The notes beneath the pieces are model-generated. The model was given only the letters and a program-made list of their open reading frames with translations, searched no databases and was not told the DNA's origin. DNA of 64,000 nucleotides from Anaerolineae bacterium. GTDB lineage: Bacteria > Chloroflexota > Anaerolineae > Epilineales > JAHCIE01. Shown in pieces: positions 11,812 to 58,238 of this stretch. Within the stretch, counting starts at the first letter, position 1. Every line of letters begins with the position of its first letter. The position numbers and the translations under genes were made by a program. The stretch covers positions 87,800 through 151,799 of the forward strand of contig JAXLWJ010000004.1 of assembly GCA_046328535.1 (NCBI GenBank). Reading direction: 5' to 3'.

Positions 11812-14800
11812 CTACGGTCGTCTTGCGCCCCTCGCGCCCTGGCCGTCTACCTCAACCGCTTGACCGTGTCCCAGCCCCACCGAATCACGCGCCACATACG
11901 GGAAGTAGAGGCTGTAGCTCTTCTGACCCGGCGTGGTGAGACTCTGCACGCGCAGCGGCGTCTTCAGCGCCTCGACGTTGCCGGCCTTGTCAATGGCGCG
12001 GCTGCGTAGCGCGACCGCGCCGCGCGGGGCGCTGACAGTCGCGGCCCACAGCGTGCCGGCGCCGCCGGTGGTGTCCGCCTTGGCGTCGTCAGGACACAGC
12101 GCGCCGGCCAGCAGGGCCGCCGCCGCCGCGCCGGTCGTGGCGTCCGTCCACGTCTGCCCACCGTCCACGCTGACCTGCGCCTGGGCGATGCCCCAGCCGT
12201 CGGTGGCGTAGCCCCAGGCGAGAATCTGGTCGGGGGCCAGCCCCTGGCACGCCTGGGGAACTGTCGCGCCGGGACGGGGGTAGACGATGTCCGACACGGG
12301 CGCGATGCTGTCCACGGTGACTGTGACCGGCGCGGACGGGGCGCTCACGTTGCCCGCCGCGTCGGTGGCCCGCGCGCGGATCGTGTGCTGGACGCCCTCC
12401 TCAGTGGGCAAGGGCCAGTTGTAGCGCCAGACACGCGGCGCGCCCGGCCGGGGCAGTAGCCCCACGGGCAGGTACGGTCCGGCGACGACCTGCCACGGCC
12501 CGCCGTCTATCGCCACCTCCACCCGCTCGATACCGCCGCGAACGCTCAGCGGCGCCGGATCGTAGGCGCTGCCGCTGATGGTGGCGATCCGGCCCTTGAG
12601 CGCCGCGAAGTCGTCGAGCGCCACGGTGGCCTGCGGCGGCGTATTGTCCACGGTGACGGTCGCCGACACCGGCGCGCTCACCTGGCCGAAGATGTCGTGG
12701 CCGCGCGCCTGGACGACGAACTCGCCGCTGGCCGGTACATCAATCCCCACCTGCCAGCCCAGGTTGGTGAAGATGCCGCCGACCTGGGAGGGTGTCACCA
12801 CCCACGGCCCGTCGTTCACCCGGACTTCGACGAAGCCGAGGCCGGTCTGGTCACTCGCCGTGCCGGTCACCGTTTGCCGCCCGCTACGCATCGTCGCGCC
12901 GACGGGCAGGGCAATGGCAACGCGCGGCGGCTGGTTGTCCACCGCGCGCGTGGCGCTGGATTGGGCCAGGCTGACATCGCCGCTCGCTGTCGCGCTCTTC
13001 ACCGCGGCCGTGACCGTGACCGCCTTGATGCCGGCGACGTTGGCGCCGAGGCCCGCCGTGACGGTGATCGGTGTCTGGGGGCCGGGGGCGAGGTTGCCCA
13101 ATGGAATGAGCCAGCGGCTCGCGGGCGCCTGGGGGGGCAGGCCGTGGATGGACTGGAGGGTTGCGCCGTCGCTGGCGGTGATCTCCAGCGTCAGGTCGGT
13201 CACTGGCACGCGGTCCACGTTGGTCAGACTGAGGCTCCACGGCGCGGCGCTGTTTGGCCCAAGGATGCGGCTCGACCCGCGAGGATTCTGGACACTCAGC
13301 GTCACGTGGCGGCCCTGCGGCTGGCCCGCGTTCGGCGCCGTCGTCGGCGTGATGCTCGTCCAGTGGTAGGCGCTGGTCCACGGGCCGAGCACCGATTGGG
13401 CCGTCGGGAAGACGCTGGCGACGCGGCCGCCGGCGTCGTTGAAGGCCAGCATCCGCACGTCCACGGCCGGGAGCGCGACGCCGAGGTCGCGCCACGGCAG
13501 GGCGATCTCGGTGTCACCCTCCGCGCCCGTTCGCGCCGCGCCGAAGTCGTGCTGCTCCCAGGCGCGGCCGGTCCAGTGGTACACGGCGTTGCCCGAGCCG
13601 CGCAGGGCGACGGCAAAGTCGGCGTTGAACGGTAGGGTCTGGGCCTGGGGGGCGCTCGCCCACAGTTGCGTTGTGCCGCCCGCCCTGGTGTCCAGGTAAA
13701 TGTAGCCCACGCCGTTGACGCCCCACGCCGCGCCGCGCCAGCCGATATACAGGTTGGTCGCGTCGAAGCTGGCCCACAGACCCTGGGACTGCGTCGGACG
13801 CGGGTCCACGTCGAGGCGCTCCGACGCGAGCTTCCACTCGCCGCGCGCCACGTCCATAAAACCGTTGACCTGGATGGACGACTGCCACGCGCCGTCGGCG
13901 TCCTTGGCCGCGCCGCCACCGCTGGCGCCGACGAGCCACGGGCCGAAGTGGCGCACCGTGGTGTTGCCGACCCTGTCCCTGGCGGCCAGGTGGACGTACC
14001 ACGTCCCCGCGCTCGTCAGCTGCGCGGTGTAGCTGGCGCCCGTCACGGCGTCGCCCGTCGTCGGGTTGGTGTCGCTCGTCTGGTCCACTACGGCGATGAC
14101 GGACACCTGCCCACTACCGTCGGTCAGCGGCGGCCACGTCAGGCCCACCGAGGCGGGCGCTGTCAGGTGAGCGCCGGGGCTGGGCTGGAGCTGGGCCTGG
14201 AAGGGCGTCGGCCCCAGGTTATCGGCGACGAAGACGACCGGCTGCACGGTCGCGTTCCCCGCGCGGTCCGTGGCTCGGATGCGGGCCGGGAAGGACGCGG
14301 AATCCGCGCCGCTCGGGACCGTGTAAGCCCACGTCCACGTGTTAGCGGTAAGCGTCGCCGCCGTCCACGTCTTCCCGCCGTCCGCGCTGCCCTCGACCAG
14401 GACCACGCCACTGGTCGCGTCGCCCGTCGTACCCGCGAGGGTGAGCGCGCTCGTGATCACGCCCGTCGGTGGGACGATGGTCACGGTCGGCGCGGCGCTG
14501 TCCTTGATGAGCGTGAGAACCGTGTCACCCGGCGCGCTGCTGCCGGCGGTGCGGCTGGCGCGGAGCGTTATGCTGTGGGAGCCATCGGCGCTGAGCGTGA
14601 TTGGCGCGCTCCAGCGGGTCGCCTGAGCCGTCGGGTTGGCGAGCGTCGCCTTGCCCTGACTGACGCCGTCAACCAGCACCTCGACCTGTCCCTGCCCGTC
14701 GGTGGCGGCGAAGTGAACCGCGCCCGCCAGCGTCAGCGTACCCGACACGACCGCCGCGCCCGGCGTGGGCGACAGCAGGGCCGCCTCGTTGCGCGTCGTG

Positions 14801-17800
14801 GCGATAGTGACCGACGACGGGGCGCTCTGGCCGACGTTGCCCGCGCCGTCCACCGCGACCGCCTGCACGGAATGCGTCCCGTCGGCCAGCGGCACGGCGG
14901 CGTTGTACTGCGGAGCGCCCAGGGCGCGCGTCGCCGTCACGACCTGCCCGTCCACCAGGAAGTAGACGCGGGCCACGTTCCACTGGCTCGCGCTGCCGAC
15001 GGGGACGACGTCGCTGACGCTGGCCTGGAGCGGCAGCACGGGGGCGCTCGATTGCAGCCCCGTCGTGGGAGTAATCAGCCCCGTCGTGGGCGGCGTGCCG
15101 TCGCCGATGAAGCTGGCGCGGAACGTCGCCGTGCCGCTGATAGTGTTGCCGCTGGCGTCGGCCGGCCGCGTGTACAGGCGATACAGGCCGTCGCCCTGGA
15201 AGCCGTTGTAGGGCAGGCTCCAGTACGAGCCGGCCTGGCCGGCCGACGCCAGTGTCGCCGGCGTCCACGTCGTCGGCAGGGTGCTCGACGGCGGTTGGCT
15301 CGGATCGCCCACCTTCGTGACGCCGACCTGCACCGACGCCACGCCCGCCGCGCCGGCGGCGCACGTCGCCCCCTGCTTGCCGAACAGCAGCGTGACCGGC
15401 GTCGCCAGCAGCTCCTTGTAGCCGAGGTCCGCCTGGCCGCCGCCGCCGAGCGGCACGGGCTGGAAGATCGCGGCCGGGATGCGGTTCACGGCCGGCGACG
15501 TCAATTGCAGCGAGTAGTCGGGCGGGCCGTTCGGGTCGGGGTTGTTGAACTGCGGGTCCACGCTGACCAGGTCCGTCGGGTCCGGGGTGAAGCCGGACGT
15601 GTTGGACGAGCCGTTCTGGTAGAACAGGTTGTAGCTGTCGAACACCTGCGCGCCGCCGCCCGCCGCCACACCCGAGCCGTTGTCGGCGAAGATGTTGAAG
15701 CGCGTCTGGAGCCAGGTGTTCTGGCCCGCCACAGTCAGGGCCGCGCCCGTGTTGTTGGCGATGGTGTTGAAGGCGAACACGCCGCTGGACGCGCCGTCGA
15801 AGCCCGCCGCCAGGCCGTTGTTGGCCTGGAAAACGTTGTGAGTCACGGTGATGGCGTTCGACGCGCCCGTCACCACCAGGCCACCCGCCCCACTGCCGCT
15901 GCCCGCGTTCTGGACGGTGAAGCCGGTGACTTCGACGTTGGTCACGCCGTTGAGGCTGAGCGCCGCGCCGCTGCCGCCCGCGTCAATGATCGTCTGGTCC
16001 GCGCCGCTGCCGACGAGCCGGACGCCGCTGCGCAGCGTGACGTTCTCCTGGTAGGGCTGCGTCGGGTCGGCGTTGGCGGCCACGCCCACGGTCCAGACGC
16101 CCGGAATCGGCGGCACGTGAGCGATGCCGTCGCCAATCGTGTTGAAAGCGTCCACCTGCCACTCCAGGCCGTCGTTGAGGCACTGGGCGCAGTAGCTCTG
16201 GGAGACGTAGACCGCGGCCTGGGCCGACTGGGCATAGCCGATGTCCACGCGCAGCCCGGCGCCGGGCGGCGACGGGTCGCCCGGGTCGCCCGCGTCCACC
16301 AGGGGCGAGTCGGCCTGGGGCCGGTAGTCTTGCTGGCTCGGCGCGACGAAGCGGGGGTCGGCGAAGACCTCGCCTGGGCCTGGGCTGTTCTGGACGACAC
16401 CGTCTATCATCAGATCCTGGGGCTGCCCCGGCGGCCCGTTGCGCCAGAAGCCGTTGAACGTATGCAAGGCGGTCGTCGCCGCCGACTGGTAGCTCAGGGC
16501 GGCGCCGTTGTTGAAGGCGAACACGGTGTTGCGGACGTCAATATTGCCGTTGTTCGTGGCGGCGATACCGTTGTCGTTGGCGACGATGGTGGTGTTAACG
16601 AGCAGCGCCTTTGCGCCGCCGTTCGCGCCGTCAACGCCGACCGCCGTCTTGGTGTTGCGGACGATGCTGCGGGTGACGCTGATCGCGCCGCCCGCGTCAA
16701 TCTTGACGCCGTCCACGCGGCTGTCGCCCGTCAGGCTGATCAGGGCCAGGCTGGCCGCGCGCACGCCCTCGGCCCCGACGACGGCGCCCGAAGCGTTTTG
16801 CGGCGGCGCAATGACGGTGAGGGCCGCGCCACTGCCGAAGACTCGCACGCCGTTGACCAGGTAGACGCTCTGGCGGTACAGGCCCGGGTTGACGAGGACT
16901 CGCTGCGCGCCGCTGGCGATGGCCGACTGCACGTCGGCGAAAGCGGCCACGTTCCAGGTGTGGCCGCTGTTGGCGCACTTCTCGCAGTAGCCGGGGTCAA
17001 CGTAGACCGTACCGCGATACTGATAGTAGCCCAGGTCCGCGCCCCCGTTGGCCTTGCCGCGCGCCGCGGAGGCGGCGAGCAGGCGGAAGACGCCCTGGGG
17101 CGCGCTGTAGAAGGCGGCCTGGACGAGGGTCATCGCCGTCGAGGCGACGCCGGGCGGCGCCGACAGCCAATCCCCCGCCGCGCCGTTGGCGCTGGCGTAG
17201 CCGTTGTGGTTGATGTCGGCCACCGTGCCGACGCCGTTGTCCTCCCAGACGCGGGGGAGGGGGGCGGCGTTGGGCAGCGCCGCGAACAGGTTGTTGCGGA
17301 TGAAGATGCCCTGGGCGACGGCGGAGGTATGCTTCACCCCGACGACGCTGGAACTGTTGCTGACGAACGTGTTGTGGTTGACGTCCACGCTGGACGTGCG
17401 GCTGTCCACACCAATGCTGCCCGGCCGGTCGAGGCTGAACACCACCTGCCGGATGGTGATGATCTGCGCGTTCAGGTCCGTCGCGCCGGGGGTCCCGCCA
17501 AAGGCGATTTGGACGCCGGTCTGGGCGTCGCGGATGGTCAGGCCCTGGATCGTCACACCGAGGATGCCCGGCGCGCTCGGCGTCTGGTCGCTCGGCGGGA
17601 ACACCTGGACGCCAACGCCACCGTTGGCGTCAATGAACACGGCGTCGGGGTTCACGCCCTGGATGGTCACGTAGTCCTTGCCGCCGTGGACGACGGCCGG
17701 TGCGTAGGCGCCGGGGCCGACGAGGATGGTGTCGCCGGAGGCCGCCGCGTCGAGCGCCGCCTGGATGGTGGCGAAGGCCGTTGTCCCCCAGGCGTGGCCG

Positions 17801-20800
17801 TCGTTGCCGCACGTCGCGCAGTAGTCGTCGTCCACGAAGCGGGTGACGGGCGCCGCCGTCGGCGCGAGGGCCTTGAGGGTAGGGGCGGCGCTGCGGGTCG
17901 TGCGGCCCCCTTCGCTCCACCCGCCGCTCTCGCTCGTCGGCAGCTTGCCCAGGGGAACCGGCGCCGCCGCCGGGCCGAGGTCAAGCTCGCGGCGCATGGC
18001 CCGCTTCGTCTCGCGCGTCTCGGCCGTCTTCGCGGCCGTCTGCGCGCCCAGAGGAACAATGAGCAGGTCCGACGAGCGGTCGCAGTTCACGTCCGCGCCA
18101 GCGGCGAAGGGCGCCGAGGCCGCCGCGCCGACGTTCGAGAGCTGCGCCTGGACCGGCTGGTTGGTCGCCAGGTCGGCGCGACCCAGCACGAGGTAGGCGC
18201 GGCCGCTCAGCGTGCCGAGCAGCAGGTCGTTCTTGCCGTCGTTGTCCACGTCGCCCACGCCGGCGATGAGGCCGTTGGGCGCGGGGGTGTAGCCGCTGAA
18301 CGTCACGTCGGGCGCTAAGGCGGGCTTCCAGCCGCTCGCGCGGCCGTAGGCGACGTGGGGTGTCGCGCCGTCGTTGTAGGCGAAGTCGGGCAGGCCGTCG
18401 CCGTTGACGTCGCCCAGTGGGACGACCTGGCTGCCGACGCCCGCCGGGCCACTGAAGCTGCCACTGGCGGCGGTCTTGAGGCTCGCCGGCGCGGCGACGC
18501 GCTTCGCCGCGTAGGCCGGGCCGCCGAGGAAGACGTACACGGCGGGGCCGCCGCCCGCGCTGTTGTTCGGGTCGGCGATGACGAAGTCGGCGTACTGGTC
18601 GTTATTCAGGTCGCCGACGCCCACGGCGGCCGCGCCCGCGCCGTCGGTGGCGAAAGCGCCGCCCAGGATGGGGCGCGTCCCGGTCAGGCCGTCCAGGGCG
18701 AAGCTCTGCGCCTGGCCGAGCGGCCCGGTGGCCGGGTTGCTGCCGAGGACGAGATACACCTCGCCCTTGCCGCCGGGCAGGTCGGTGACGCCGATGAGGA
18801 TGTCGTCGAAGCCGTCGCCGTTGACGTCGCCGGCGGCGGCCAGCCAGCGCCCCACCTGGCCGCTGTTGACGGTGAATATCTTGCCCCGCGTTTTCTCCGC
18901 CGCGCTGACCAGGCGCGTCGGGTCCACCTGGCCCATCGCGCCGACGCGCCCGAAGACGAGATAGACCTGGTTGTTGAGCGGGTCGCCGACGAGGAAGTCG
19001 CTCAGGCCGTCGCCGTTGACGTCGCCCGCCGGGGCCACATACTGCCCCAGGCCCGCGCCGGTCGTGCCGACAAGACTGCTCGGCGCGTCGGCCAGGGCCT
19101 GGGCGTCGGGCTTGACGGCCCAGCCGCCCGCCTTGCCGTACAGGATGGACACGCGGCCCGCGTTGGCCCGGCCGTCTACCGCGCTCGCCGGCGTCCCGAC
19201 GGCGAAGTCGGCGCGGCCGTCGCCGTCCACGTCGCCTAGCCAGGTGACGGTCTTGGTGATGTCCTCGGTCGGGCCGTTTGGCATCAGCCAGACGGTGGCT
19301 TTCTGGATGGGGTCAATGGACGCCGAGGCGACGCCACCCGCCAGCGGCTGCGGCCGCGCTGGCAGCGGGACATTGCCCGTGTCGTCGGCGTGGCCCTCGA
19401 AGGTGAACGGCGCGCTCGTCGAGACCTGGTCCACGGCGTTGGACCAGATGTCGGTCGGCGGCAGGTTATCCACCAGCACCGTGATCCGCTTCGCCGCCCC
19501 GATGTTGCCCACGGCATCCACGGCGCGCACGGCCAGGGTGTGGCTGCCGTACATGCTGGCGTCGAACTGCCAGTTATACTTCCAGGTCGCGGTTTGAGGG
19601 CGCGTCGTGGGGAACTCGCCCACGTTGCGCCACGGGCGGCGGTCAATGCTGAGCTGGACCACCGAGACGCCGGACACCTGCGGCGCGCCCGACGCCAGGT
19701 CGCTCGCGCTGCCCTCGATGGTGAAGGTGTTGAAGCGGACGTCGCTGAGCGCCTGGCCGTCCTGGACATTGGTGAAGGCGGCGGTCGGCGCGGTATTGTC
19801 CACGACCACCTGCGTCGCGGCGGCCGGCGTCTCGACGTTGCCCACGTAGTCGGTGGCGCGGGTCTGGATGCCGTAGGCCCCGTCGGCGGGCAGCGGCCAG
19901 GTGTACGTCCAGGTCTCGACGCCGCCGGCCGTCTGCCAGCCGCTGTCGTAGGCCTGGCCCTGGCCGTTGATGTAGCCCGTACCTGTGACGCGCAGCTCCA
20001 TCTTCACCGGCCAGCTCGTGGGGTCGGTGGCTGTGCCGCCAATCACAAACGACTTGCCCTTGATCGCCTGGCTTGCTTCGGGCGCGGCGACCGTGGACGA
20101 CGGCTGGTCGGCGTCAATCAGCACCTGCTGCGTGGCGGTGATGACCTTCTGCGCCCGGGCGATGGTGTCCGAGTAGGGGACGGTCGCCAGGAGGGTGGCG
20201 CGGGCCGAGGCGGTCAGGCCGCTCTGCGCGCCGCCCTTGATGGTGCTGGTCATGGCCTCGGCCGTCAGCAGCGGTCCCTGGCTGAAGTTCCACGTCAGGC
20301 GGCCCGCGCCCGCGCCCGGCGTCGGCGGCGTGTAGCCGGTCGAGCCGGTCTGCCCGCTGACGGCGAGCGCGCCCAGGGACGCTGCGTCGTAGCCGAGGGT
20401 CATGCTCCCGTTCAGCGGCGCGACGGTGGTGTTGCGGAGGTTAAGCTCCACCTGGAGCGGGTCGCCCGGCTTGAGGACGCTGTAGATCGAGCCGTTGTGG
20501 ACGACCGACGGCGTGACGTTGAAGACCAGGTTGGGCGCGGTGTTGGGCGACCAGGGGCTGGCGCCGGCCTGCTTCTCCTGGGCGTCGGTCAGGCCGTCGC
20601 CGTCCTCGTCGGCTTTGTTCGGGTCCGAGCAGACGTGGTAGACGCCGCCGTTGTCCAGCCGCACATCCCAGCCGCCCGCCAGTGTCCCGTCCGCCTGGAG
20701 GTGGCACACTTCCTGGCCGTCAGGCAGGCCGTCGCCGTCCGTGTCGGCGTTCAGCGGGTCCGTGCCAAGCTCGATCTCCTGGCGGTCGGTGAGGCCGTCG

Positions 20801-23800
20801 CCGTCCGTGTCCGCCCTGGTCGGATCGGTGCGGGATACGTAGACCTCGTCGCCGTCGGAGAGGCCGTCGCCGTCGGTGTCCCACTTCGTCGGGTCCGTCC
20901 CATACGTCGCCTCCTGTTTCTGGGTCAGCAGGTCGGCGTCCTTGTCCACGTTCCAGCCGTCGTAGGTGGTATTACCGACGGGGTCCTTGGCGTCCCAGTT
21001 CCACAGGCTGTCCACGTCGCCGGGCAGCACGTCGAAGGCGATGCTCTGGCGCGCGTTGGCAAAGTCCGTCGGGTCGTCGCTTTGCTGCGGGCCGCGGCTG
21101 TAGTTGGTGTCGGCGCTGCAATTGTAGAAGCCGAAGCCGACGCACTTCTGATAGGCCAGATTCGCCTCGACCTGCTGAAGGAACGGGATGAGGAGGTTGC
21201 GGCCCGGCGCCGTCACCTGGAAGCTCAGCTTCATGGTGTTGTGGCAGAGCTTCTTGCCGTTCGCGTCCACCGTGGCGTCGTCGTCGCAGTTCGTGCCGGG
21301 GACGGTGTTCGCGCCGTTGGTCACCGTCGTATTCTGGACGGTGAAGCCGGACGTGTAGGCCGGCGCCTGGCCGTTGTTGAAGACCGGATCGGTGTCAATC
21401 TCGGCGAACGCCCAACTATTCTTGACGTCGCCGAGGTTGCCCGCGCGGCCGTTGAACCAGGTGTTGCCCGCTTTGAACTGCCTGGTGTTGGTGTTGGCCG
21501 TCAGCGTGGTCGTCGTCGCCGTGGTCATGGCGATCTGCGAGCCGCTGACGATGCCGGTGTTCGAGATGGCGCTGGACTGGCTCACGGTCATGTTGGGCGA
21601 GCCGGCGCTCACGTCCGGCTGGTTGACGAATAAGTCCACGAACAGGACGACCTTGGCGAGCCACTCGGTGAGCTTGCTGTAGGCGTCGAGCGGGTTCCAG
21701 TCGCCGGTGATCGCGCCGACGATGATGTACAGGATCAGGAATAACAGCAGGCCGATGAGCGCGCCGGGTCCCGTACTGAAGATGACGCCGATGATGGTGT
21801 CAATGATGAACTGGAACACCGTCAAGAGGGTCGTGGCGATGGCCTGGGCGAGGAGCGAATCGCGCGCCACACCGGACAGCCCACTGGCGGCCGTCGCGTA
21901 CATGGACCAGGTCGTGATGATGAGAATCGCGCTCACGGCGACGCCGATGACGAAGCCCGAGGTCTTCCAGTACTTAGACTCAGCCTCCACCCGCTCTGTG
22001 ATGCCGGTGATGCCCTCCTCCGATTCGGCGCTTTCCTTGTTGACAATCCCAATGGCGACCAGCCGGCGCTCGTCGGCCCCCGACCAGCCCCCAAAGGCCT
22101 CAGACCAGGCTTCCTGGACGCCATACTTCAAGGCGCGGAGGCGAGTCGGGATGGGCGGCCCTGTGCGCGCGAAAATCGCTTCCCCCGCTTCGTCCTCCCC
22201 CGCCACCTCGAGCGTCGGGAGGCGCCAGACCGAGTAGACGCGCACGACTGTGCTAAAGAACTTGAACACAGGCGCGCCGATGAGGATGGCGACGCGAGAG
22301 TAGAACTGCGATGAGCCGATGGCGCTGTTCCAGGCGCGGAACGCCTCCAGCGTCCCCTTGTTCTGGAGATTGGTGACGAGCGAGTCGAGCTGGTACGCCA
22401 GGCGCACGTACTGGGGCATCGTCGTCGCCGCGGCGGCCGGGCGGTTGAAGTCGAGGAAGGCGGCCGGGTCGGCGTTCGCGGCAGCGTAGGGCAGGAGCTG
22501 CCCATCCATGCTCATCACCCGCGACCGGCCGGTGTAGTAGGAACTGAAGAGGAGTAGCGCCAGGCCGCGATACTGGTCCTGGTCGTTGGCGGGGTAGCGC
22601 CGCGCCATCTCGGCCTGCACCTGGCTCAGGTTCAGCGTCTGCCAGCGCGGCTGCCCGGACACGGCGTCCGTGGCGCACGTGTACTGGCCGAGCTGCACGC
22701 GGCGCATCACCAATGAGGGGGCGTTGCCGAGGGGGAAGCTGAAGCCGATGCCGGCCGCGCTGATGACGCTCGGATCGCCGTTCTTGATGGTCACCAGGGG
22801 GCTGCTCGCCTCGAGGTTGCTGCTCGTCTCCTGGTAGGCCAGCGCGAGGGTCGGCGTCAGGGCGGCGGTAGTGGTCGCGGCGCAGACCCCGTAGTTGTCG
22901 TTGAGCAGCTTGGCCGTCGTGGTCATGTTCGTCGTCGCCAGCGCCTCGTCGCGGCTGCCATAGGTGGCGTAGCTCAGGGCGATCTGCGACGGGTCGAGGC
23001 CCCACGTCGGCGTGTAAGGCGCGCTCGCGCCGCTGGCTTTGAAATTCTGGACGATGGTCGGCAGGTCCGGGTTCTGGTAGCCCAGGAAGCTCGGCGCCAG
23101 GCCCGACATGACGTTCATCATCTGCCGCGCTTCATCGTTGACATTGGGCGTCGGCAGCTCGGGCGCTTTCGGCGCGCCAAACTGGGCGACCCCCACGTTG
23201 CTGGTGGCGGACACGGCGAGGCCGGTGACGCGGAACAGGTCCTCGTAGTACGTGGCGACGATGGACTGCTCGGTGGCGACGCTGCAATTGCTGCTGTCCT
23301 GCGCGCCGTTGGGGTCCTTGCAGTTCGCCCAGCTATCCAGGCTCGCCTGAGTCATCCACTGGATGCGGCCGTTCGTCAGATCGAGGCCCTGGCCCACCTC
23401 GGCCGAGGTGAAGGCCAGCCGCGCGCCAAACGCGCTCACCCCGCCGCCGCTGCCGACAGCGGTGAGCGGGACGAGCAGCGTGAAGCTCGCCTTGTCGGTG
23501 GCCGTGATGGCGGCGATGCCGTACTGCGCGCCGAGGCTTGGCTTGACCGGGCTGCTGATTTCCAGCACGGGAATCAGCAGCACGTCCTGAACCGACTTGT
23601 CTAGGTCCTTGATCTGACCCTGGTTGTCGTCCGGCCAGTCCATGTAGCTGAGACCGTAGCGCAGGTGGGCCGTGTTCTTCGGCTGCACCTGAGCATCAAT
23701 ATAGACCACGCTGTTGGTTATCGGCCCGCCGATCTCGATGTCCAGCGCGGGACGATACGGCGGAATGATGAATTTGGTGGGATCGCTGGGGTTGGGGATG

Positions 23801-25680: not shown

Positions 25681-25709
25681 ATGCCTTAGATTTATGCGGA
25701 GGTATAGCC

Positions 25710-41422: not shown

Positions 41423-41450
41423 GTAGAGACGCGCTATAGCGCGTCTCTAC
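41423..41450. repeat. Perfect 28-bp palindrome gtagagacgcgc-tata-gcgcgtctctac (12-bp stem), between the IS element and copy 2
   Basis: Read directly. No T-run follows. Could be a terminator-like hairpin or a protein-binding site. Confidence 0.45.
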
Positions 41451-42756: not shown

Positions 42757-42842
42757 GTCTGGTACGGTCAAGCCCGCTCAAGCAGGCTGGCTATACGACG
42801 TCGTTCCCAACCGAGCCTGCTCAGCAGGCTTCGTCCACTCAG

Positions 42843-48900: not shown

Positions 48901-51900
48901 AGGAAGGGTGGTGGGGATGGAGGAGGGCGCTGTGACCCCAGAAGGGCCCCAACCCTCTCCCACGGGGAGAGGGGGCCAGAAATGGAGCCTGTCCCCACCG
49001 GCAACGCCGCCTCGGGAACATGGGGCGCGCGCCCGAAGCTCGGCTCGCTGGCCTTCGCCGTGGTCGCCGTCGAGGGCAGGACCAGCAGGTCCGACGAGAG
49101 ATCGCAGTTGAGGTCCGCGCCCGCAGCGAACGGCGCGGAGGCCACGCGGCCGACACTGGTGAGGGTGGCGGCGATGTCGGGGGTGGCCGGCAGGCTGGCC
49201 GCGCCGTGGATGACGTAGGCCGTGTTCGCCGACGTACCGAGGACAATGTCGTTGTAGCCGTCGGCGTTGACGTCGCCGGCGGCGGCGATGACGCCAGAGG
49301 GCGGCGGCGTGTAGCCGCTGAACGTGACGCTGGGCGCCCACGCGCCGCTGGCGCGGCCGAGGACCAGGCGCGGGGACGCGCCGCTGCTATAGATGAAGTC
49401 GGCCAGGCCGTCGCGGTTCACGTCGCCGAGCGGCACAACCTGCGCGCCCAGCGGCGCATCGCCAGGCAGGGCCGCCACAGCGCGGCTGCGGTCGAGGGTC
49501 TGGGGTGCGCCGCCGAGGCGCGGCGTCTGGAACGTCGGCGAGCCGAGGAACAGGTAAACGGCCGCCCCGCCGCCCAGGCTGTTGTTCGGGTCGGCGACGG
49601 CGAAGTCGGCCAGCTGGTCGCCGTTGACGTCGCCAACGCCGCTGAAGCCTGCGCCAGCGAGGTTGATGGGCAGCCGCGCCGAGGCATCCGCCGTGACATC
49701 GCGCACCCCACCCGGCCAGCGGCGGCGGCCCTGGATGAGATAGAGGTGGCCCTGGTGGGCCGCGTTGTCTGCGCCGATGAGCAGGTCCCCCACGCCGTCG
49801 CCGTTGACGTCGCCCGCCGCCGCCACGAACGCGCCGAGGCTGTCGCCGCCGATGCCCGTGGTGAACACAACGCCGCGGCTCGATTGAGTGGGCTGTCGGA
49901 GCTGCGCCACGTCCCAATCCTGGCCGAGCGGCCCCGTCTGCCCAAAGACAACGTACACCACGCCGTTGACCCCATCGCCGATGAGGATGTCGGCCAGGCC
50001 GTCGCCGTTGACATCGCCGGCCGGGGCGAGGGTCTGGCCGAAGCCGGTTGTCTGGCTCGCCACGAGGCTGCTCTCGGCGGCGGACAACGCCGCCATCGCC
50101 GGGGGAACCGGCCAGCCGCCCGGCCGCCCGTTGAGGATCACGACGCGCCCGGTCCCGTTGCGCGCGGCGGGCAGGCCGACGGCGGCGTCGGCGAGGCCGT
50201 CGCCGTTGACGTCGCCCAGCCAGACCACCGTCGCGCCGGCCAGGTCGCCCTCGGCGTCCGGCGCGAGTTGGACCGTGGCGCTCAGGACGGCGTCCACCGT
50301 GCCTTCCAGGGGCGCGGGGCGCGCGGGCAGCGGAACGTAGCCGGTGTCGTCGGCGTGACCGAGGAGGGCGATGGGCTGGCCGGTCTGGACATCGGTCACG
50401 CTGTTGGCGATGTTGACGGCGGGCGGCACAAGGTCAACGATGACGCTGCGCGTTTGCGCCTGGCCCACCTGCCCCAGGCCGTCTACGGCGCGCACGGCCA
50501 GGCTGTGCCGGCCGCTGGCTTTGGCGTCGAGCTTCCACGTCCACGACCAGTTCACGGTCTGCGGGTACGGCGCGCGCTTTTCGAGAACGGTCTGCCACGG
50601 GCGGCCGTCAATGGTCAACTCCACCGCCTGAACGCCGGCCACCGCCGACGCGCCGGACAGCAGGTCGGTCGCGCTCCCCTGGAGGCTCACGCTCGCCCCG
50701 CCGAGGCTGTCCTTGACCAGGCCGTTGATGACCTGGCCGTCCGTCAGGCCGCTGAAACTCGCGCCCGGCGCGGTGTTGTCAACGATGACGGCGGCCGTGG
50801 CGTCGGCGGACTCGTTGCCGACAGCGTCGAGGGCGTGGGCGCGCAGGGTGTACGCGCCGTCCTTCGGCAGAGGCGACCACGTCCAGGCCCAGCTTTCGGC
50901 GCCGTCGGCGGTTTGCCAGGGCGCGACGCCGTCCACGCTCACCTGCACCTGCGATATCCAGGTGATGTCGTCCCTGGCCCCGCCCCCGACGACGTATGAA
51001 GTCCCCTTGATGGCGGTGTTGGCAATCGGCGCAGCGATGGTGATTGTTGGCGCGACAGCGTCTATGACGACCGGCAGGGTCCGGCTGATGGCTTTGGTAG
51101 AGCCGTCGGTGGGATCGGTGTAGGGCATGGTGAGGCTGAGTGCGCTCGGCCGCGAGCCGCCGCCGAGCGCCGCCGCCTGCCACGTGACGGTCATCGCCTC
51201 GCCCGAGTAGAGCGGCTTCTGGCTCAAGTCCCACACGCTACACGTCTGCCCGCCGACCGTCCCCGCCGTCGGCGTCGGCGGCGTGTAGCCGGCGCTGGGC
51301 TGCGTGGCCGTCAGCGTCGGCGCGGCGAAGTCCGCGTTGGGCAGGCACAGTTGGAGCGGCTTGTCCAGGGCGCCGGCCGTCTGGTCGGCCAGTTGGAACT
51401 GGGCGGTGAGCGCCTGGCCCGGCTTGAGCAGCGTGAGGGTCGCGCCGGCGTGCTGAGTCGTCGGCTGCTGGATGGCGGCGCGCAGGCGCGGCGCGGTGTT
51501 CGCGCCGAAGGGACTCAGGCCGAAGGCGCGCTCCTGGCTGTCTTGCAGCTCGTCGGAGTCGGCGTCGGGGTCCAGCGGGTTCGAGCAGATGCGATATCCC
51601 TGGCCCTGCCGCTTGCCGGGTGGGCTGACGAACCACCCGCCGACGAGGCGCGGCGTTGGCCCGCTCGTATCCACGTGGCAGACCTCCTCGCCGTCGAGCA
51701 GGCCGTCCTTGTCGCTGTCGGCGACGGCGACCGACGTGCCGAGAATGATCTCCTCGCGGTCCGTCAGCCCGTCGCCGTCGGTGTCGGCCTTCGTGGGGTC
51801 CGTCCCCAGCGCGGCGCGGTTCTGCACCTCCCAGCCGTCGCTCAGGCCGTCGCCGTCCGTGTCCCACTTCGTCGGGTCGAGGCCGAGCGCCGCCTCCTGG

Positions 51901-54900
51901 GCGTCGGGAATGCCGTCGCCGTCCTTGTCCGGGTTGGTGATCTGGTCCCAGTTCCACAGCCCATCCACCGTATTGGGCAACACGTCGAGGGTGAGCGGCT
52001 GCGTCGCCTGCGCCCAGGCGTCGGCGTCGTCGGACTTGGGGCTAGAGTCGACCGTCGAGTCGGCGCTGCACACGCGCACCAGGACGGCCCACCAGCACTT
52101 CTGGTAGCGCAGCGAGAAGTTGACAAAGCTCGTGACGTGGATGGCCGTGTTGCGGGCCGCCTGGGCCGGCGTGAAGCGGGCCGTGACCGCGCTGCCGCAC
52201 TTCTTCGACGTGCCGTCCATCACGCAGGCGCCCTGGCCGTAGGTCGCCTGGGCGTCGCCTGACGCCCACTCGGCGTAGGCATAGCTCTGGGCCACGTCGT
52301 CGGCGCTGCCGGCGCGCGAGTACACCCAGTTCCACTCGTCGTCGCCCGGCCCGACCTCGACCGTCGTCGTCAGCGATGCCCCGAAGGTGACAGAGTTGCT
52401 GACAACGGTCCCCTGGTTCTGGTCGCCCAGCGTCAGCGTCAGCGGCCCACTCTGGACGGCGTTGCTGCTCGGCAGCTGGGAGTAGAAGGCGAACTGCACC
52501 AGGAAGTCGGCCAGCCACGACCCCAGGTAGTTGTAGGTGTGCAGCGGGTTCCAGTCGCCGGTAATCAGGGCAACGATGAGGTAGAGCAGCACGGCCAAAA
52601 TGACCTCGACCAGCAGGCCGACGCCTGTGTCGGCCACGGCAATCAGCACGAGCGCCAGGACAAGCTGCAACACCGCGATAATCGTGGCGGCGATGTCATT
52701 GGACAGCTCGACGTCCGTCTGCATGTGGGACACGTCGTCGCTGTAGCCGTGGAAACTCGTCCAGATTGTGACAAGCTCGACGACGGTGGCGAGGACGGCG
52801 ATGGCGACGGCGATGCGGCCCAGCGCCTTGGCGCTCGACGCCACGGCCTCGGCGGCTTCCTCACCGGCCCCGGTCGTCTCGGCGGCGACCTCGGCCGCCT
52901 CGGTGAGATTGCTGGCGGCGGCGCGCGCGGCCCAGCGGATGCCTTGCGGGATGAAGCGCAGGTAGGGCAGCGCCATGGTCGCCACGCCGCCGAAGGCGTG
53001 GACAATGGGAACTGCGCCCGCGCTCAAAGCGGGCGACTGGCCCCACGTCGTCGCTTCCCACTGCTGGAAGCCCGCCGTCGCGCCCTGCTGGTCCACGTCG
53101 GCGGCCAGTTCGTCCAGGGCGTAGGCGGCGGCGAGATAGCCGGGCAGCGTCGTCTGCTGCGGGCGGTTCAACTGAGTAAAGATGGCGGTGTCGTCGGCCT
53201 GGGGCTGGAGGAGGGGCTTGCCGTTCACGGCGACGATCTTCACCAGGCCAGCGTACCACGTTAGGAACAGGGCCTTGATGTAGCGTTCGGCGTCCTTCGC
53301 AGCGTCGAAGCTCCCATAGCGGCGGTCCAGCTCGGCCAGCGCCCCGTTCATGGTCAGCGCGCGCCAGGCGGGGCCGCCCGCGCCGGCCTGGCCCTGGTGA
53401 TACATCTGCACCCCCACCTGGCGTACCGTCGCCAGGGCGTTGTAGCTCAACGCCATGTCCAGGCCCAGGCTGTCGCCGCTGTCGGTGATCGTCACGCCGC
53501 CGGCCGGCCCGGCCTCCATGCTGAGGCTGCCGGCCGTCTCTTGGTAGGCGACGACCAGGGTCGGGGTGAGGGTCGCGCCGTAGTTCGCGCTCAGGAAGCT
53601 CTGCGTCGTGGTCATGGTCGTCGCGGCCAGCGCCTCATCGCGGTGGGCATAGGTGTTGTAGGCGACCTTGACGGGCGCGGCGACGCCCCACGTCTCGGTG
53701 ACCGGCGTTGTCGAGGCGGTGAACCGCCCGACGACCGCCGACAGGTCGGGCTGGAGCGCAGCCAGGTAGGACATGCCCAGGCCCGACACAAGGTTGAAGA
53801 CCTCCCGCGCCTCGTCCGGCGCGCTCGCGCTGATCTCGGGCGCGCTCGGCACGCCGAACAGCGCCACCTGGACGTTAGCGCTCTCGCCGACGGTCATGCC
53901 GGTGACGCGGAAGCTCGGCTCGACGTAGGACACGACGATGGACTGCGTCGTGTCCACGCCCCACGTCGCGCACGTCGTGCCACTGTAGGCGACACACTTC
54001 TGTTGGTCGAGCTTCGCCTGCGTCAGCCAGCCCAGGCGCATGTCGGAGAGTTGCAGCGGCGTCGCGCTCTCGGCCGGGGTGAAGGCGAGGCGCGCCTCGA
54101 ACGCGCTGACTGCGCCGTTGCTCTCCACGGTGGACAGCGGCACGAGGTAGCGGAAGGAGCCGTCCGCGTTGGCTTTGGCCGTCACGCCGTACTGGGCCGC
54201 CAGGCTCAGGCTCGTCGTGCTGCTCAGGTCGAGCACCGGGATGAGCTTGATATCATCGATGGAGTTGTCCAGGTCCTGGATCTGCGCCTGGTTGTCGTAG
54301 GGCCAGTCGAGGTACGTCGTGGTGTAGCGCAGGTGGGACACGTCTTGCGGCTGTACCTGCACGTCCAGGTAGACGTAGGTGTCATTGTGAGCCGCGTCGC
54401 CGGGTTTAGAGATGCTGATCCCATAAGCCGGGCGGTAGGGGAGCGCCTTGTACGGCGACAGGTCGGGGCCGTCCGGCACGCCGTCATTGTCGTTGTCCTC
54501 GTCCCAGGCGTTCGGGATGCCGTCGCCGTCAGAGTCGAGGCCCGCCGGGTCAGCGGCGAGCCACTTCGCGTTCCACTCCTGACCGTCGTCAATGCCGTCG
54601 TGGTTGGAGTCGCGCTGGAGCGGGTCCGTGGTCCAGGTCTGCGTCACGCCGTTGGCGGTGATCGGGAAGCCTTGCAGCTCCAGGGTGTCAGTGATGCCGT
54701 CGCCGTCGGTGTCGGCCAGGCGGTAGTCGGTACCGAGGCAGCGCTCGGTCTTGTTGCTCAGCCCGTCGCCATCGTCGTCGCCATTGGGGTCAACGCCGTC
54801 AGGCAGGCTGCCGCAGTCGGCGACCGCGTCCGTTAGGGTTGGCGTGTTGGCGCTGGCGGGCGCGGGGCGCGGGGCGGCGAACTCGGCGGCCAGGGCGGCG

Positions 54901-56066
54901 ACGCGATCCGGCTCGCGCGGCGAATCGGTCAAGCCCAGGGCTGATAGCGCAGACGGGAGTGTCTCGCGCGATTCGCTACGCTCCCGGAAACGGACGATCT
55001 GGCTCGCCTGCGCCAGCGGTGTTCCGATCATGGAGGCGATGACTGTGACGACGACGACCGCGTAGAGGGCGTGACGACGGCGGCGGAAGGCCCACACCAC
55101 CAGGACCGACGCAAGGGCGGCCGCGCCAGCGGCGAGGGTCGCCGCATCAAAGGGGACCGGAATCGCGGGCAGCCCGACGCGGCCCCCCCCATTGGCCGAC
55201 GGCGCCGCCCGCCCGGCGACAGCCACCCCGGCCGGGGCGTCAATCGGCGCGACCGCCGCGCCAAAGTCGCGGTAGTCTACCTGGGCCTGCACGCGGGCGT
55301 CGTTCGTGGCGCTGATTTGCGGCAGGGTCAGGTCAACGACGACGCGGCGCGGCAGGCCGTCGCCGTCTATCCAGACCTCGCCCGCGCCGCTCATCTTCTG
55401 GTAGACGGCGGGCGCCTGGACTTCGACGCCGGGCGGCAGCTCGCGCTGGGCGAGGGTCTGGAGGCGCTCGCGCTGGATCTCGGCGTAGCGCGCCCCGTCG
55501 AGGGTGAAACGGTAGTGGCTGAACCCGGCCGGGGCCGCCATTGCTTCCACGTCCCGCGCCACGCTCAACAGGCTCAGGGCGTCGGCGGCCGGCGCGGCCG
55601 CGCCCAGCGGGTTTTGAACGACGCGCCACTGGCCCGCGTGGCCGACATACGCCGCGTCGCCGACCATCACCAGTTGCACCACCCCCGCGCCCTGGCCGGA
55701 CCACGCCGCCCCGGCCGCGCCCGCCTCTGGCGTTAGACGGCCGACGGCGAGCGTCAGCCGCGCCCGGTCCGGCAGGGCGGCCTCGCCCTCGATGCGCAGG
55801 CGGGCGTGGCTGTCGCCGCGCCCCACGTTGGCAGGGAGGGCGCGCGGCGTGAGGGTCTGCTGCACGTCGGAGGTCAGCCGATACGTGCCGGCCTCCTGGG
55901 CGCGCTGCCAGGCGCGCGCGACGGCGGCCGATGGCTCGGAGGGGTGCGGCAGCCCGAGCGCCAGGTTCACGGTGGGCCGCACAAGGGCCGCGAGGGCAAG
56001 GGTGACGAGAATGAGGGCGGGCAGCAGCGTGGTGAGGCAGCGGATTATGCGAGGCTGGTTGCGCAT
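42963..56066 (-). pseudogene. Giant modular surface protein, paralog 3: two frameshifts, a copy-specific extra propeller insertion, and truncation at the C-module boundary next to the IS630 element (possibly functional as a truncated variant if the frameshifts are assembly errors)
   Basis: Three ORF pieces in different frames (47829-56066, 43421-49246, 42963-43424) together reproduce the copy-1 domain order. The frame switches lie at about 48800-48990 (G/C-tract hairpin cluster) and about 43425-43480. It ends ...HYGPWYVGAGN* where copy 1 continues into the C-terminal module. SD-like GGAG lies 9 nt upstream of ATG 56064-56066. Only 18 bp separate it from the upstream stand-alone module gene. 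Confidence 0.55.
48811..48980. repeat. Intragenic G/C-tract hairpin cluster (cctcccccctttgggggagg; ccctctcccacggggagaggg; ccccacaagtgggg) at the copy-3 frameshift
   Basis: Three perfect hairpins built from G- and C-homopolymer runs lie within a linker that is short and hairpin-free in copies 1 and 2. All three minus frames are open here. Confidence 0.4.
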
Positions 56067-56084
56067 CGTCAGGAACTCCTGGCT

Positions 56085-58238
56085 CTACTGCGGACCGCGA
56101 TGCGGATCGGCGCGCTGCGCGGCAAAGGGCAGGTACAGGCGATAGGGAGGCGCGGGCGGCGCGCCACCGTGCTGCACCCGCAGCGGCGGCTTCAGGCTCT
56201 CCGCGTTGCCCGCCCTGTCTACGGCGCGGCTCCGCAGCGCCAGCTCGCCGGCGGGGGCCGGCAGGCTCGCGGCCCACAGCGTCGCTTCCCCTTTCTCAGC
56301 GATCGCGCCGGCGCATAGAACACGGGCCAGGAAGGCTGCCGCCTCGGGGCCAGTCAGCGCCGCCGTCCACGTCTGCCCGCCGTCCACGCTTGCCTGGACG
56401 CCCGCCAGCGACCAGCCGTCCCGCGCCGTCCCCCACATCAGGATGTGGCCCGCCGGCAGCGTCAGGCACGCCTCCGGAACGACGCCGCCCGCGCTGGGAT
56501 AGGCGATGGTAGAGGTGGGGCGGACGGTATCCACAGTGAACGCGGTCCACGCGCTGGCGGGGCCGACGTTGCCGGCGGCGTCCGTGGCGCGCGTCCGCAC
56601 GCGGTGCGGCACGCCCTCCTCGGTCGGGACGCGCCACGCATAGCGCCACAGCCGCGCGCCCAACGGCGGTAGCGGCGGGATCGCTGGCAGGAAGAGGTAT
56701 GGTGGCGGGGCAAGCTGCCAGGGGCCATCGTCCACCTGCGCCTCGACGCGCGCGATGCTGCCGAGCGCGGGGAAGGGATCCACTACTGTCCCCGACACGA
56801 TAAGCGTCGAGTCCTTGACGACATTGCGGCTGAGGCTGATACTAGCAATGGGTGGGACGTTATCCACGAGCACGGCCGCTGACACCGGCGCGCTCGTCTG
56901 GCCGAAGATGTCATGCCCACGCGCCTGCACGACGAAGCTGCCGCCCGACGGCGCATCAATGCCGATGCTCCACCCAAGGCGCGTGAAGATGCCGCCGACG
57001 CTGGTTGGCGGCTGCCGCCACGGCCCGTCCCCCACCCGCACCTCGACGAAGCCGATGCCGGAGCCGTCGCTCGCCGTCCCTGACACGGTCGCCGGGCCGC
57101 TGCGCATCGTCGCGCCGGCCGGCAGGGCGATCTTCACGACCGGCGGCGCATTGTCCACCGTCAGACTCGCCTGCGACTGCGCGAGGGTCACAGGGCCGCT
57201 GGGCGCGTTCGCCTTCACCTGCGCCGTGACCGTCACCGCGTCTATGGCGGCGACAGAGGCGGCGACGCGCGCGGTGACGGTGATGGGCGAGCGGGCGCCG
57301 GGCGCGAGATCGCCAAGCGGGATCGTCCAGCGTCCTGCCGCCGCCGGCCCCGCCGCGCCCTGGATCGCCTCGAGGGTCAGGCCGGGGCTGGCGCCGACGT
57401 CCAGCGTCACGTCTGTCACCGGGACGCGGTCCAGGTTGCGTATGGTCAGCAGCCACAGCGACGCGCCGCCAGGGCCGACGACGCGGGCCGCGCCGCGCGG
57501 GGTGGCGACGTTGAGGCTGACGTGATTGCCCGTGGGCTGGCCGGCGTTGGGGACCGTCGTCGGCGCGAGGTTCGTCCAGTGGTAGGCGCTCGCCCACGGG
57601 CCGAGCACCGACTGGTTGGTGGGGAAGACGCTGATGATGCGGCCGTGGTCGTCGTCGAAGGCCAGCAGGCGCAGGTCAACCGCGCCAACGCTCGCTCCCA
57701 GGTCGGCCCACGGCAGCCGGAGTTCGGTGTCGCCGTTCGGCCCGTTCACACCGTCTACCGCGCCACCATCGCGCCACGCCGCGCCATCCCAGCGCATCGC
57801 GCGGGCGCGGGGGCCAGTCAGGTAGACAAGGTAGCCGGCGGGGAAGGGCAGCGACTTGCCCTTGACCGCCGCCGCGCCGTCGGGGCCGCTCCAGGGCGTC
57901 GTCGTGCCGCCGGGGCTTACGCCGATATAGATGTAGCCGGCGCCGTTGACACCCCAGTTCGCGCCGCGCCAGCCCAGGTAGAGGTTGGCGGCGTCGAAGC
58001 TGGCCCACAGACTCTGGGAGGTGGTCGGGCGGGGGTCTACGTCGAGCCGCTCGCTCGCCAACCGCCACTCGCCGCGCTCGACATCCAGCTTGCCGTCTAC
58101 GATGATGGACGACTGCCAGCCGTCGGCCGTCGTCCAGGCGGGGCGGGCCGCCTGCGCACCCTGGGCGCGGCCCAACGACAGCAGCGCGGTGAGCAGCAGG
58201 GCGACAACCAGGCGCAGGCGAACGGTTCGACTCGTCAT
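56085..58238 (-). CDS. Secreted stand-alone homolog of the giant-protein C-terminal module (CBM9/DOMON-like plus Ig-like domains), 717 aa with its own signal peptide
   Basis: True start is ATG at 58236-58238 (MTSRTVRLRLVVALLLTALLSLGRAQGAQA, an AxA-type signal), with AGGGAG 4 nt upstream. The ORF-track 78-aa extension to 58472 is Arg-rich noise. The mature N-terminus AARPAWTTADGWQSSIIVDG aligns with the exact junction ...GGGAAKDADGAWQSSIQVNG in copy 1. The C-terminus aligns with the copy-1 C-terminus. Confidence 0.8.
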   Translation of the reverse strand: MTSRTVRLRLVVALLLTALLSLGRAQGAQAARPAWTTADGWQSSIIVDGKLDVERGEWRLASERLDVDPRPTTSQSLWASFDAANLYLGWRGANWGVNGAGYIYIGVSPGGTTTPWSGPDGAAAVKGKSLPFPAGYLVYLTGPRARAMRWDGAAWRDGGAVDGVNGPNGDTELRLPWADLGASVGAVDLRLLAFDDDHGRIISVFPTNQSVLGPWASAYHWTNLAPTTVPNAGQPTGNHVSLNVATPRGAARVVGPGGASLWLLTIRNLDRVPVTDVTLDVGASPGLTLEAIQGAAGPAAAGRWTIPLGDLAPGARSPITVTARVAASVAAIDAVTVTAQVKANAPSGPVTLAQSQASLTVDNAPPVVKIALPAGATMRSGPATVSGTASDGSGIGFVEVRVGDGPWRQPPTSVGGIFTRLGWSIGIDAPSGGSFVVQARGHDIFGQTSAPVSAAVLVDNVPPIASISLSRNVVKDSTLIVSGTVVDPFPALGSIARVEAQVDDGPWQLAPPPYLFLPAIPPLPPLGARLWRYAWRVPTEEGVPHRVRTRATDAAGNVGPASAWTAFTVDTVRPTSTIAYPSAGGVVPEACLTLPAGHILMWGTARDGWSLAGVQASVDGGQTWTAALTGPEAAAFLARVLCAGAIAEKGEATLWAASLPAPAGELALRSRAVDRAGNAESLKPPLRVQHGGAPPAPPYRLYLPFAAQRADPHRGPQ

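Follow-up and report, generated by a model that had tools for sequence, protein, structure and literature searches.

The stretch of DNA analysed here (the window) comprises 64,000 nucleotides from the metagenome-assembled genome of an uncultured Anaerolineae bacterium (contig JAXLWJ010000004.1, 180,227 bp, of assembly GCA_046328535.1, positions 87,800 to 151,799) and carries a tandem array of three giant paralogous genes together with a stand-alone gene for their C-terminal module (the C-module). The data suggest that these four genes are likely an ancient and conserved set, under purifying selection, whose giant products are specialised for the envelope or for adhesion and belong to a Chloroflexota family that is as yet uncharacterised. 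This differs from an earlier sequence-only reading of the window, which had recognised the array but proposed that it is under diversifying selection, as in antigenic or host-range variation. The genes of the array are the following.

11812-25416, minus strand: copy 1, predicted giant envelope protein, 13,605 bp, 4534 amino acids in one open reading frame (ORF) (MFN8496872.1, U0641_03380)
27708-41294, minus strand: copy 2, predicted giant envelope protein, 13,587 bp (deposited intact ORF MFN8496882.1)
42966-56066, minus strand: copy 3, divergent giant paralog, 13,101 bp
56085-58238, minus strand: stand-alone C-module gene, 717 amino acids (MFN8496886.1)

The paralogs were located by translated searches of the window with copy 1 as the query, which returned one full-length homologue spanning 41294 to about 27.7 kb, another spanning 56066 to 42966, and a match to the C-module gene that was confined to copy 1 residues 3840-4510 (57.5% identity). 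The three co-oriented minus-strand genes of 13605, 13587 and about 13100 bp and the separate module gene are thus exactly where the sequence-only reading had placed them. Guanine-cytosine (GC) content is about 70% in the giant genes. One shared domain order and an amino acid identity of roughly 50-60% had also been proposed for all three copies. Both statements hold for copies 1 and 2, which have the same architecture and are 54-55% identical, whereas identity between copy 3 and copy 1 is just 38-42%, and copy 3 carries two extra propellers and lacks the C-module.

A genome scan with the core domain of these proteins found the locus in the sister genomes STL-CHL21 and STL-CHL22, and a third sister genome, JBDHWS01, also contains part of it. 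The order rebuilt from contigs of STL-CHL21 and STL-CHL22 is regulator, C-module gene, copy 3 without a C-module, copy 2 and copy 1, and JBDHWS01 has the portion from the regulator to copy 3. Because the sisters share this arrangement, a free C-module next to a copy 3 that lacks one is the ancestral state. Copies 1 and 2 are single unbroken ORFs in both STL-CHL21 and STL-CHL22; the copy 1 orthologues are 81-83% identical to copy 1 in amino acid sequence and the copy 2 orthologues run for 4496 and 4529 codons from stop to stop. The orthologues of copy 3 in STL-CHL22 and JBDHWS01 are uninterrupted (4314 or 4321 amino acids), and orthologues of the C-module protein that are exactly 717 amino acids long and 77-79% identical were found in at least four other assemblies. 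Wherever the sister stretches cover them, the giant ORFs are unbroken, save for an insertion sequence (IS) in copy 3 of STL-CHL21.

The ratio of nonsynonymous to synonymous substitution rates (dN/dS), calculated by the Nei-Gojobori method between the window and sister species, was low for every gene of the array. It was about 0.2 for copy 1 (0.12-0.46 in 250-codon windows), and 0.17 for the head and 0.20 for the tail of copy 2 (the tail taken from a short-read contig, see below). Copy 3 gave 0.14-0.27 and the C-module gene 0.21-0.22, and no window of 250-400 codons exceeded 0.5. The paralogs are 64-70% identical in DNA overall and no more than 78% identical over any stretch of at least 100 nucleotides, which excludes recent gene conversion as well as duplication during assembly. 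One-to-one orthologues, low dN/dS and a lack of conversion tracts together indicate that these are old, individually conserved paralogs and not a variation locus, and that the array is kept by purifying selection.

The anatomy of the giant proteins was determined on copy 1, using Pfam on the whole protein and on ten pieces of it, a scan of NCBIfam, and a hydropathy scan for transmembrane (TM) segments. By residue number, and with Ig for immunoglobulin-like, copy 1 is composed of the following parts.

8-26: TM segment (hydropathy scan)
about 30-300: N-domain, no match in Pfam, NCBIfam or PDB
304-348: TM hairpin around an RPRRFRRL loop
430-540: first TSP3/calcium cluster, weak and below cut-off (TSP_3 20.1 bits, TSP3_bac 14.5 bits)
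560-1040: core ectodomain of 480 amino acids, no match in Pfam, NCBIfam or PDB
1042-1245: TM block and GDWNPL motif, three strong TM segments plus one weak
1500-1620: four TSP3_bac repeats (Pfam)
1780-2000: Ig domains
2040-2460: seven-blade FG-GAP propeller (Pfam and calcium loops)
2527-3345: three beta-helix modules
3345-3835: Ig stalk
3838-4534: C-module

Most of the parts named in the sequence-only reading were recovered. Hidden Markov model searches found TSP3 repeats, the FG-GAP propeller, beta-helix and Ig-like domains, while the hydropathy scan and alignments revealed the TM hairpin and GDWNPL block. FG-GAP scored 91.4 bits (cut-off 22.1, E 2.7e-26) and FG-GAP_3 63.8 bits across residues 2020-2530, where D-x-[DN]-x-D-G loops lie at 2062, 2132, 2197, 2269, 2336, 2389 and 2442; these seven regularly spaced calcium loops correspond to seven propeller blades. 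TSP3_bac scored 98.3 bits (cut-off 25, E 2e-28) over four stretches within residues 1480-1800. Beta_helix scored 43.7 bits (cut-off 25.9) over two stretches, with NosD slightly below its cut-off (23.3 against 23.6 bits). The beta-helix modules are delimited by a C-x-x-C-x-N-x-G-x-x-W-x-x-x-A-F motif, preceded by Y, that occurs three times per copy; modules 2 and 3 align with each other (289 columns, 28% identity, E 3e-17) and module 1 aligns with them over the motif alone. Among Ig-like families, Big_13 (76.5 bits) and Big_7 (43.3 bits) matched whole copy 1, Big_3_3 also matched, and the last Ig domain gave a weak Mo-co_dimer-like match in Pfam. The G-D-W-x-P-L motif follows the last TM segment, and its residues G679, D680, W681, P683 and L684 are invariant in the three copies and in family protein P0003.

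Several other features were looked for and not found. No HemolysinCabind or RTX match was obtained with Pfam or NCBIfam, and the window has no genes for a type I secretion system (T1SS). In the search for sorting signals of the LPXTG, PEP-CTERM or MYXO-CTERM type, NCBIfam gave just a sub-threshold match to MXAN_2561 (16.8 bits against a cut-off of 150), and the hydropathy scan found no C-terminal TM segment in copy 1. No entry of Pfam, NCBIfam or PDB matched the N-domain, the core ectodomain or the initial 200 residues of the C-module. The CBM9/DOMON-like fold that had been proposed for the C-module was not borne out by sequence, as neither Pfam (E≤10) nor a PDB profile search returned such a match.

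Copy 3 has an anatomy of its own. An extra FG-GAP_3 propeller lies at about 47.8-48.7 kb (E 3.6e-22) and a Kelch-like propeller at about 46.3-47.0 kb, where Kelch_3 matched with E 1.4e-6, above Pfam's cut-off. A search with the region unique to copy 3 matched generic FG-GAP/VCBS proteins, which confirmed the repeat type. The first beta-helix module has lost its CxxC cysteines, and the protein stops at GPWYVGAGN, where the C-module would begin in copies 1 and 2. Truncation of a copy 3 C-module by the IS630 element that lies downstream was considered and rejected, since copy 3 ends alike in sister genomes without the element and the element lies about 210 nucleotides past the stop.

All three copies carry the core ectodomain and the G-D-W-x-P-L TM block in a protein of more than 3,000 amino acids, and this places them in one family. 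A word-based search with the core domain under-reported this family (3 matches), so its size was taken from an exhaustive profile search, in which 622 clusters (50% identity) matched the core profile with E≤1e-3, and 123 with E≤1e-30. Most of these proteins are 3,000-5,800 amino acids long with the core at about residues 500-1300, and the few that carry a name belong to Chloroflexota. Tandem arrangements are found as well in metagenome-assembled genomes (MAGs) of Caldilineae, Caldilineales, Anaerolineales and 'Chloroflexia'. In the more distant Caldilineales ABC2.10, Caldilineae HK-STAS-CHLO-19 and 'Chloroflexia' MFD09779 (contigs L001/L008, L009 and L012), the tandem giants are likewise split over multiple frames as assembled. 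Existing annotations such as 'tandem-95 repeat protein' and 'FG-GAP-like repeat-containing protein' include family members, for example KAA3664489.1 (5528 amino acids) and MFN8496882.1. These names cover repeat content alone, and the N-terminal architecture of core and TM segments has neither a name nor a model.

The model suggested by these data is that the giants, at about 4,300-4,530 amino acids, would be held in the cytoplasmic membrane by their N-terminal third, in which a signal-anchor TM segment, the TM hairpin and a block of 3-4 TM segments leading to GDWNPL bracket the conserved ectodomain. The positive-inside loop of the hairpin, taken with the extracellular type of the domains that follow, suggests a polytopic anchor with the N terminus inside and the C terminus outside. 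About 3,300 residues would then point outward, made up of TSP3 repeats, the FG-GAP propeller, PbH1 beta-helices, the Ig stalk and the C-module. As TSP3 repeats, integrin-type propellers, PbH1 beta-helices and Ig stalks are usual parts of adhesive or structural envelope proteins, the likeliest role would be in envelope or sheath structure, or in cell-cell or cell-substrate adhesion, in filamentous Chloroflexota. The paralogs would be specialised and not interchangeable, with two extra propellers in copy 3. Glycosylation of the giants by the adjoining sugar cluster (described below) may also occur, as suggested by proximity.

The remaining part of this model concerns the C-module, which together with a terminal Y-x-L-Y-[LF]-P motif may be a distal anchoring or sorting piece that reaches copy 3 in trans. 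The C-module consists of an unclassified domain of about 200 amino acids followed by Ig-like domains. The product of the free gene begins with a Sec signal peptide (MTSRTVRLRLVVALLLTALLSLGRAQGAQA; …SLGRAQGAQA) and ends in YRLYLPFA. Its gene lies upstream of copy 3 with 18 nucleotides between its end and the copy 3 ATG, and an AGGAG sits 8 nucleotides before that ATG; the same 18-nucleotide spacing is found in STL-CHL22 and JBDHWS01 (contigs L017 and L019). This conserved, translationally close pairing of a C-module gene with a copy 3 that lacks the module suggests that the module may act in trans.

Structural comparison gave limited help in classifying the C-module. AlphaFold2 (AF2) modelled it as strings of Ig-like beta-sandwiches (pLDDT 80-90), except that the first sub-domain reached only pLDDT 30-69, too poor for fold comparison, so that a resemblance to CBM9 or DOMON in fold alone may still exist. 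The Foldseek matches were SiiE, the Ig domains of PrgB, GhpA and an S-layer protein from haloarchaea, each with a low TM-score, and the PDB profile search gave at most a weak resemblance to E-set or Mo-co-dimer-like Ig domains. The first sub-domain (copy 1 residues 3838-4040) matched no Pfam family at E≤10 across five homologous sub-domains, and against PDB profiles it gave one chance match (E 0.19).

At their extreme C termini, copy 1 carries YSLYFPYV, copy 2 YTLYFPTI and the free C-module YRLYLPFA; copy 3 has no such motif. The sites are as follows.

about 11,880-11,910: terminal motif of copy 1
about 27,710-27,750: terminal motif of copy 2
about 56,090-56,150: terminal motif of the C-module gene

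Among 67 full-length family representatives, 23 have [YFWL][LFIVM]P[..][LIVMA] in their last 16 residues (e.g. IYLPLLLRNH), compared with 0.37% of internal windows, and 7 others have a TM-like anchor at the end. The consensus is Y-L-P-L-V-x-R (representatives among P0142-P0289) and the local form is Y-x-L-Y-[FL]-P. No literature on the terminal Y-L-P-L-V-x-R motif was found, and it is a candidate for an undescribed sorting or anchoring signal of Chloroflexota.

A more specific proposal can be built on these observations, in which an unnamed family of at least 622 clusters would be defined by an undescribed N-terminal membrane module and a new C-terminal sorting signal, with the C-module completing copy 3 in trans. 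This proposal is offered only tentatively. The free C-module shares 58-62% identity with the corresponding modules in copies 1 and 2, and the copy 3 stalk is 39-42% identical to their stalks. The free module is thus closer to copies 1 and 2, so it may be an independent secreted protein and not the partner of copy 3, and its sequence would also be compatible with a later partial duplicate that has a role of its own.

The deposited sequence presents a different difficulty, because only copy 1 is intact in it. The sequence-only reading had noted this correctly for the deposited letters, and had rightly called for the frameshifts to be confirmed with reads. In the deposited copy 2, an intact ORF of 3253 amino acids (31533-41294, MFN8496882.1) is followed by an indel-laden tail. 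Alignment with the orthologues showed 9.7 kb without a frame-breaking indel and then about 65 small indels from 31,561 to the end of the gene; within 28.0-31.56 kb these are mostly of 1-2 nucleotides and lie outside homopolymers. In a three-way comparison, substitutions per site in the tail were 0.084 for the window lineage and 0.078 for STL-CHL21, and in the head 0.069 and 0.068. Many indels with almost no excess of substitutions is an odd ratio for natural decay, in which the ratio is the opposite; many indels with few substitutions are typical of an unpolished consensus.

Copy 2 was then compared with Logan assemblies of short-read runs SRR14234082 and SRR14234083 from the same strain (contigs L013 and L014). 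Over 22.4-28.0 kb the window differs from these contigs by 9 single-nucleotide polymorphisms (SNPs) and no indels, whereas over 28.0-31.6 kb there are 244 differing positions, about 170 of them gap columns. Both contigs encode an unbroken copy 2 tail of 1367 amino acids with its end at window position 27708. This tail shares 79% identity with the orthologue from STL-CHL21, and where it overlaps the 3253-amino-acid ORF the two are 100% identical. As two independent short-read assemblies have an intact tail, the apparent decay of copy 2 is a consensus artefact, and copy 2 is an intact gene of about 4505 amino acids. A minor haplotype as the source of the indels is much less likely than consensus error, and long-term natural decay of the tail was rejected because the substitution excess is near nil and the short-read contigs are intact. 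Pseudogene calls on the deposited contig are therefore unsafe. The patch at 28,000-31,561 resembles unpolished consensus beside strain-variable insertions, as does 43,440-43,604 and possibly the IS630 element at 41,598-42,757.

In copy 3 the deposited frame changes twice, near 48.98 kb (within 48.78-49.00 kb) and near 43.44-43.49 kb, in a cluster of indels at 43.44-43.60 kb. The first change lies inside the following insertion.

48780-49000, minus strand: GC-rich palindromic insertion resembling repetitive extragenic palindromic (REP) elements, in the copy 3 linker between the seven-blade propeller and the next domain

The linker is about 125 nucleotides longer than in the orthologues. A 28-nucleotide hairpin of the insertion, CCCCTCTCCCCGTGGGAGAGGGTTGGGG, has exact matches in 46 unrelated metagenome contigs, and since it recurs verbatim it appears to be a widespread REP-like repeat and the insertion a natural one. 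The hairpin is sometimes found in tandem at a spacing of about 107 nucleotides (L060; loci L020-L065), and a similar hairpin is present in the window at 41,423-41,450. STL-CHL21 has a different hairpin in the same linker, GAGACGCCCCATGGGGCGTCTC, which is in frame. An exact 27-nucleotide pattern beside a copy 3 lesion had no match in JGI/ENA metagenome contigs. The second change consists of four clustered indels of 1-2 nucleotides, which restore the original frame and resemble the artefact patch of copy 2. The 5.5 kb between the two changes has a dN/dS of 0.27 against the orthologue although it is out of frame, which suggests that any inactivation of copy 3 is either recent or spurious. In STL-CHL21, copy 3 is interrupted near the TM hairpin by an IS of about 1.05 kb with a DDE-type transposase (contig L010, 7,653-8,732); mobile elements strike copy 3 in more than one lineage.

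It could be argued that in this strain copies 2 and 3 have truly become pseudogenes and that the short-read contigs come from a co-existing strain in which they are intact. The indel block of copy 2 is sharply bounded, starting at 31,561, and 44% of window-specific substitutions in the tail fall at third codon positions compared with 55% in the head. A REP-like insertion is also a natural type of event, and the transposase frame of the IS630 element is broken as well. However, about 65 indels against about 20 excess substitutions is the reverse of what natural decay produces, the flanking sequence differs hardly at all from the short-read contigs (9 SNPs in 5.6 kb) and switches abruptly at the patch, two independent runs yield the same intact tail, and the out-of-frame part of copy 3 keeps its dN/dS of 0.27. 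Taken together, this makes true pseudogenes an unlikely explanation.

The proposal of the sequence-only reading, a contingency or variation locus with one expressed giant and decaying or silent paralogs under diversifying selection, is largely refuted. Tandem diverged paralogs of surface proteins would suit it, as would the frame disruptions deposited for copies 2 and 3 and the mobile elements in the array, namely IS630 and an AbiL cassette here, the IS in STL-CHL21 copy 3 and the REP-like insertion. However, all four genes have one-to-one orthologues with dN/dS of 0.14-0.27 and no window above 0.5, and no tracts above 78% identity are shared between paralogs, so there is no trace of gene conversion or cassette exchange. 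Short-read assemblies from this population lack the copy 2 frameshifts, and sister genomes have intact versions of copies 2 and 3. The possibility that assembly produced the array by collapsing or duplicating one giant gene is refuted, despite near-equal lengths of 13,605, 13,587 and 13,101 bp and a low-quality stretch in the contig, because the paralogs are 64-70% identical in DNA, the domains of copy 3 differ, the order recurs in separate sister assemblies (including an 836-kb contig) and short-read contigs cross the junction of copy 1, AbiL and copy 2. The tandem array of giant paralogs described in the sequence-only reading therefore stands.

There are several caveats to the conclusion that the array encodes specialised giant envelope or adhesion proteins. 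The functional role is a prediction from sequence. The topology comes from a hydropathy scan alone, and the weak TM segment at residues 1042-1060, which is needed to place the C terminus outside, is unclear in copies 2 and 3. A PDB profile search with the core domain found nothing and its AF2 model is weak (pLDDT 61), and the first C-module sub-domain likewise matched nothing, with a model of low confidence. The closer similarity of the free module to copies 1 and 2, mentioned above, counts against its being the partner of copy 3. The frame changes of copy 3 could be real, in which case this strain would have copy 3 as a pseudogene or in split form, and the IS in STL-CHL21 may mean that copy 3 is dispensable. 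Finally, linkage to the glycosylation cluster is known from this window alone.

Compared with known systems, the giants resemble SiiE and RTX adhesins of the LapA/MpIBP type in size (4-5 thousand residues), in their strings of Ig-like domains and calcium-binding repeats, and in a probable extracellular site. Unlike the giant RTX adhesins they have no RTX/T1SS C-terminal signal, LPXTG motif or outer-membrane anchor; instead, they have what appears to be an N-terminal polytopic membrane anchor with a conserved unnamed ectodomain, and they occur as tandem paralogs under purifying selection. The seven-blade propeller with D-x-[DN]-x-D-G loops is like that of bacterial integrin-alpha-type FG-GAP proteins (PMC3192720), and copy 3 goes beyond this with a second propeller of the VCBS type. 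However, the propeller is about 10% of the protein here, and neither an integrin-like partner subunit nor evidence of heterodimer signalling accompanies it. The array also resembles S-layer glycoproteins with their glycosylation clusters, in that sugar genes lie directly downstream and the C-module is composed of Ig-like domains. It differs in having no SLH domain; neither a lattice nor glycosylation is known for any of these proteins, and the linkage is seen in one genome.

A review of Chloroflexota genomes reported that giant genes, often for surface proteins, are enriched in Anaerolineae (PMC10608941). They are a noted but unstudied trait of Anaerolineae and other Chloroflexota. Chloroflexota are the dominant members of many communities in sludge, sediments and mats, and form adhesive filaments. 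'Giant genes' as such were reportedly treated by Reva and Tümmler in 2008. The locus described here offers a comparative handle on the trait, with four orthologous genes under purifying selection across several species, a well-defined N-terminal membrane module that has no existing family model, and a separately encoded C-terminal module that amounts to a natural experiment. It also calls for caution with pseudogene calls in MAGs, as a deposited stretch of 3.6 kb contained dozens of spurious indels that mimic gene decay.

The neighbouring genes and the mobile elements within the array are the following.

58958-62398, plus strand: BTAD/NB-ARC/TPR (SARP/AfsR-like) regulator, divergent from the array
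41598-42757, minus strand: IS630-family element (DDE_3), 1,160 bp, with 39-nucleotide terminal inverted repeats and a broken transposase frame
25710-27678, plus strand: AbiLi/AbiLii defence cassette (AAA_21 ATPase and RloB), between copy 2 and copy 1
96-10306, minus strand: sugar-activation/glycosylation cluster, downstream of the array

The regulator has an orthologue in the same position in STL-CHL21 (75% identical), and the gene is also present in STL-CHL22 and JBDHWS01. PADLOC identified AbiLi (E 4e-103) and AbiLii (E 2e-29); the cassette has a GC content of about 60%, also occurs in this population's short-read contigs, which span the junction of copy 1, AbiL and copy 2, and is separate from the array. 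The sisters have about 650 nucleotides from the copy 2 stop to the copy 1 start. The IS630 element occupies the space between copy 3 and copy 2, where a sister genome has about 310 nucleotides. As the spacing in the sisters is too small to hold them, both the cassette and the IS630 element are lineage-specific insertions.

The sugar cluster contains genes for a PMT-like glycosyltransferase, a glycosyltransferase (GT), a GT2, a DegT aminotransferase, a PglD-like acetyltransferase and a B12-radical-SAM protein, as well as a hexapeptide transferase, a HAD phosphatase and a GHMP kinase. In Aneurinibacillus, the GDP-glycero-manno-heptose pathway of HddA, GmhB and HddC is involved in S-layer glycoprotein glycosylation, and the combination of GHMP kinase, HAD phosphatase and hexapeptide transferase recalls that route. 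It is possible that the cluster modifies the giant proteins, an association suggested by its position. The first 6 kb of the cluster have a lower GC content of 58-62%.

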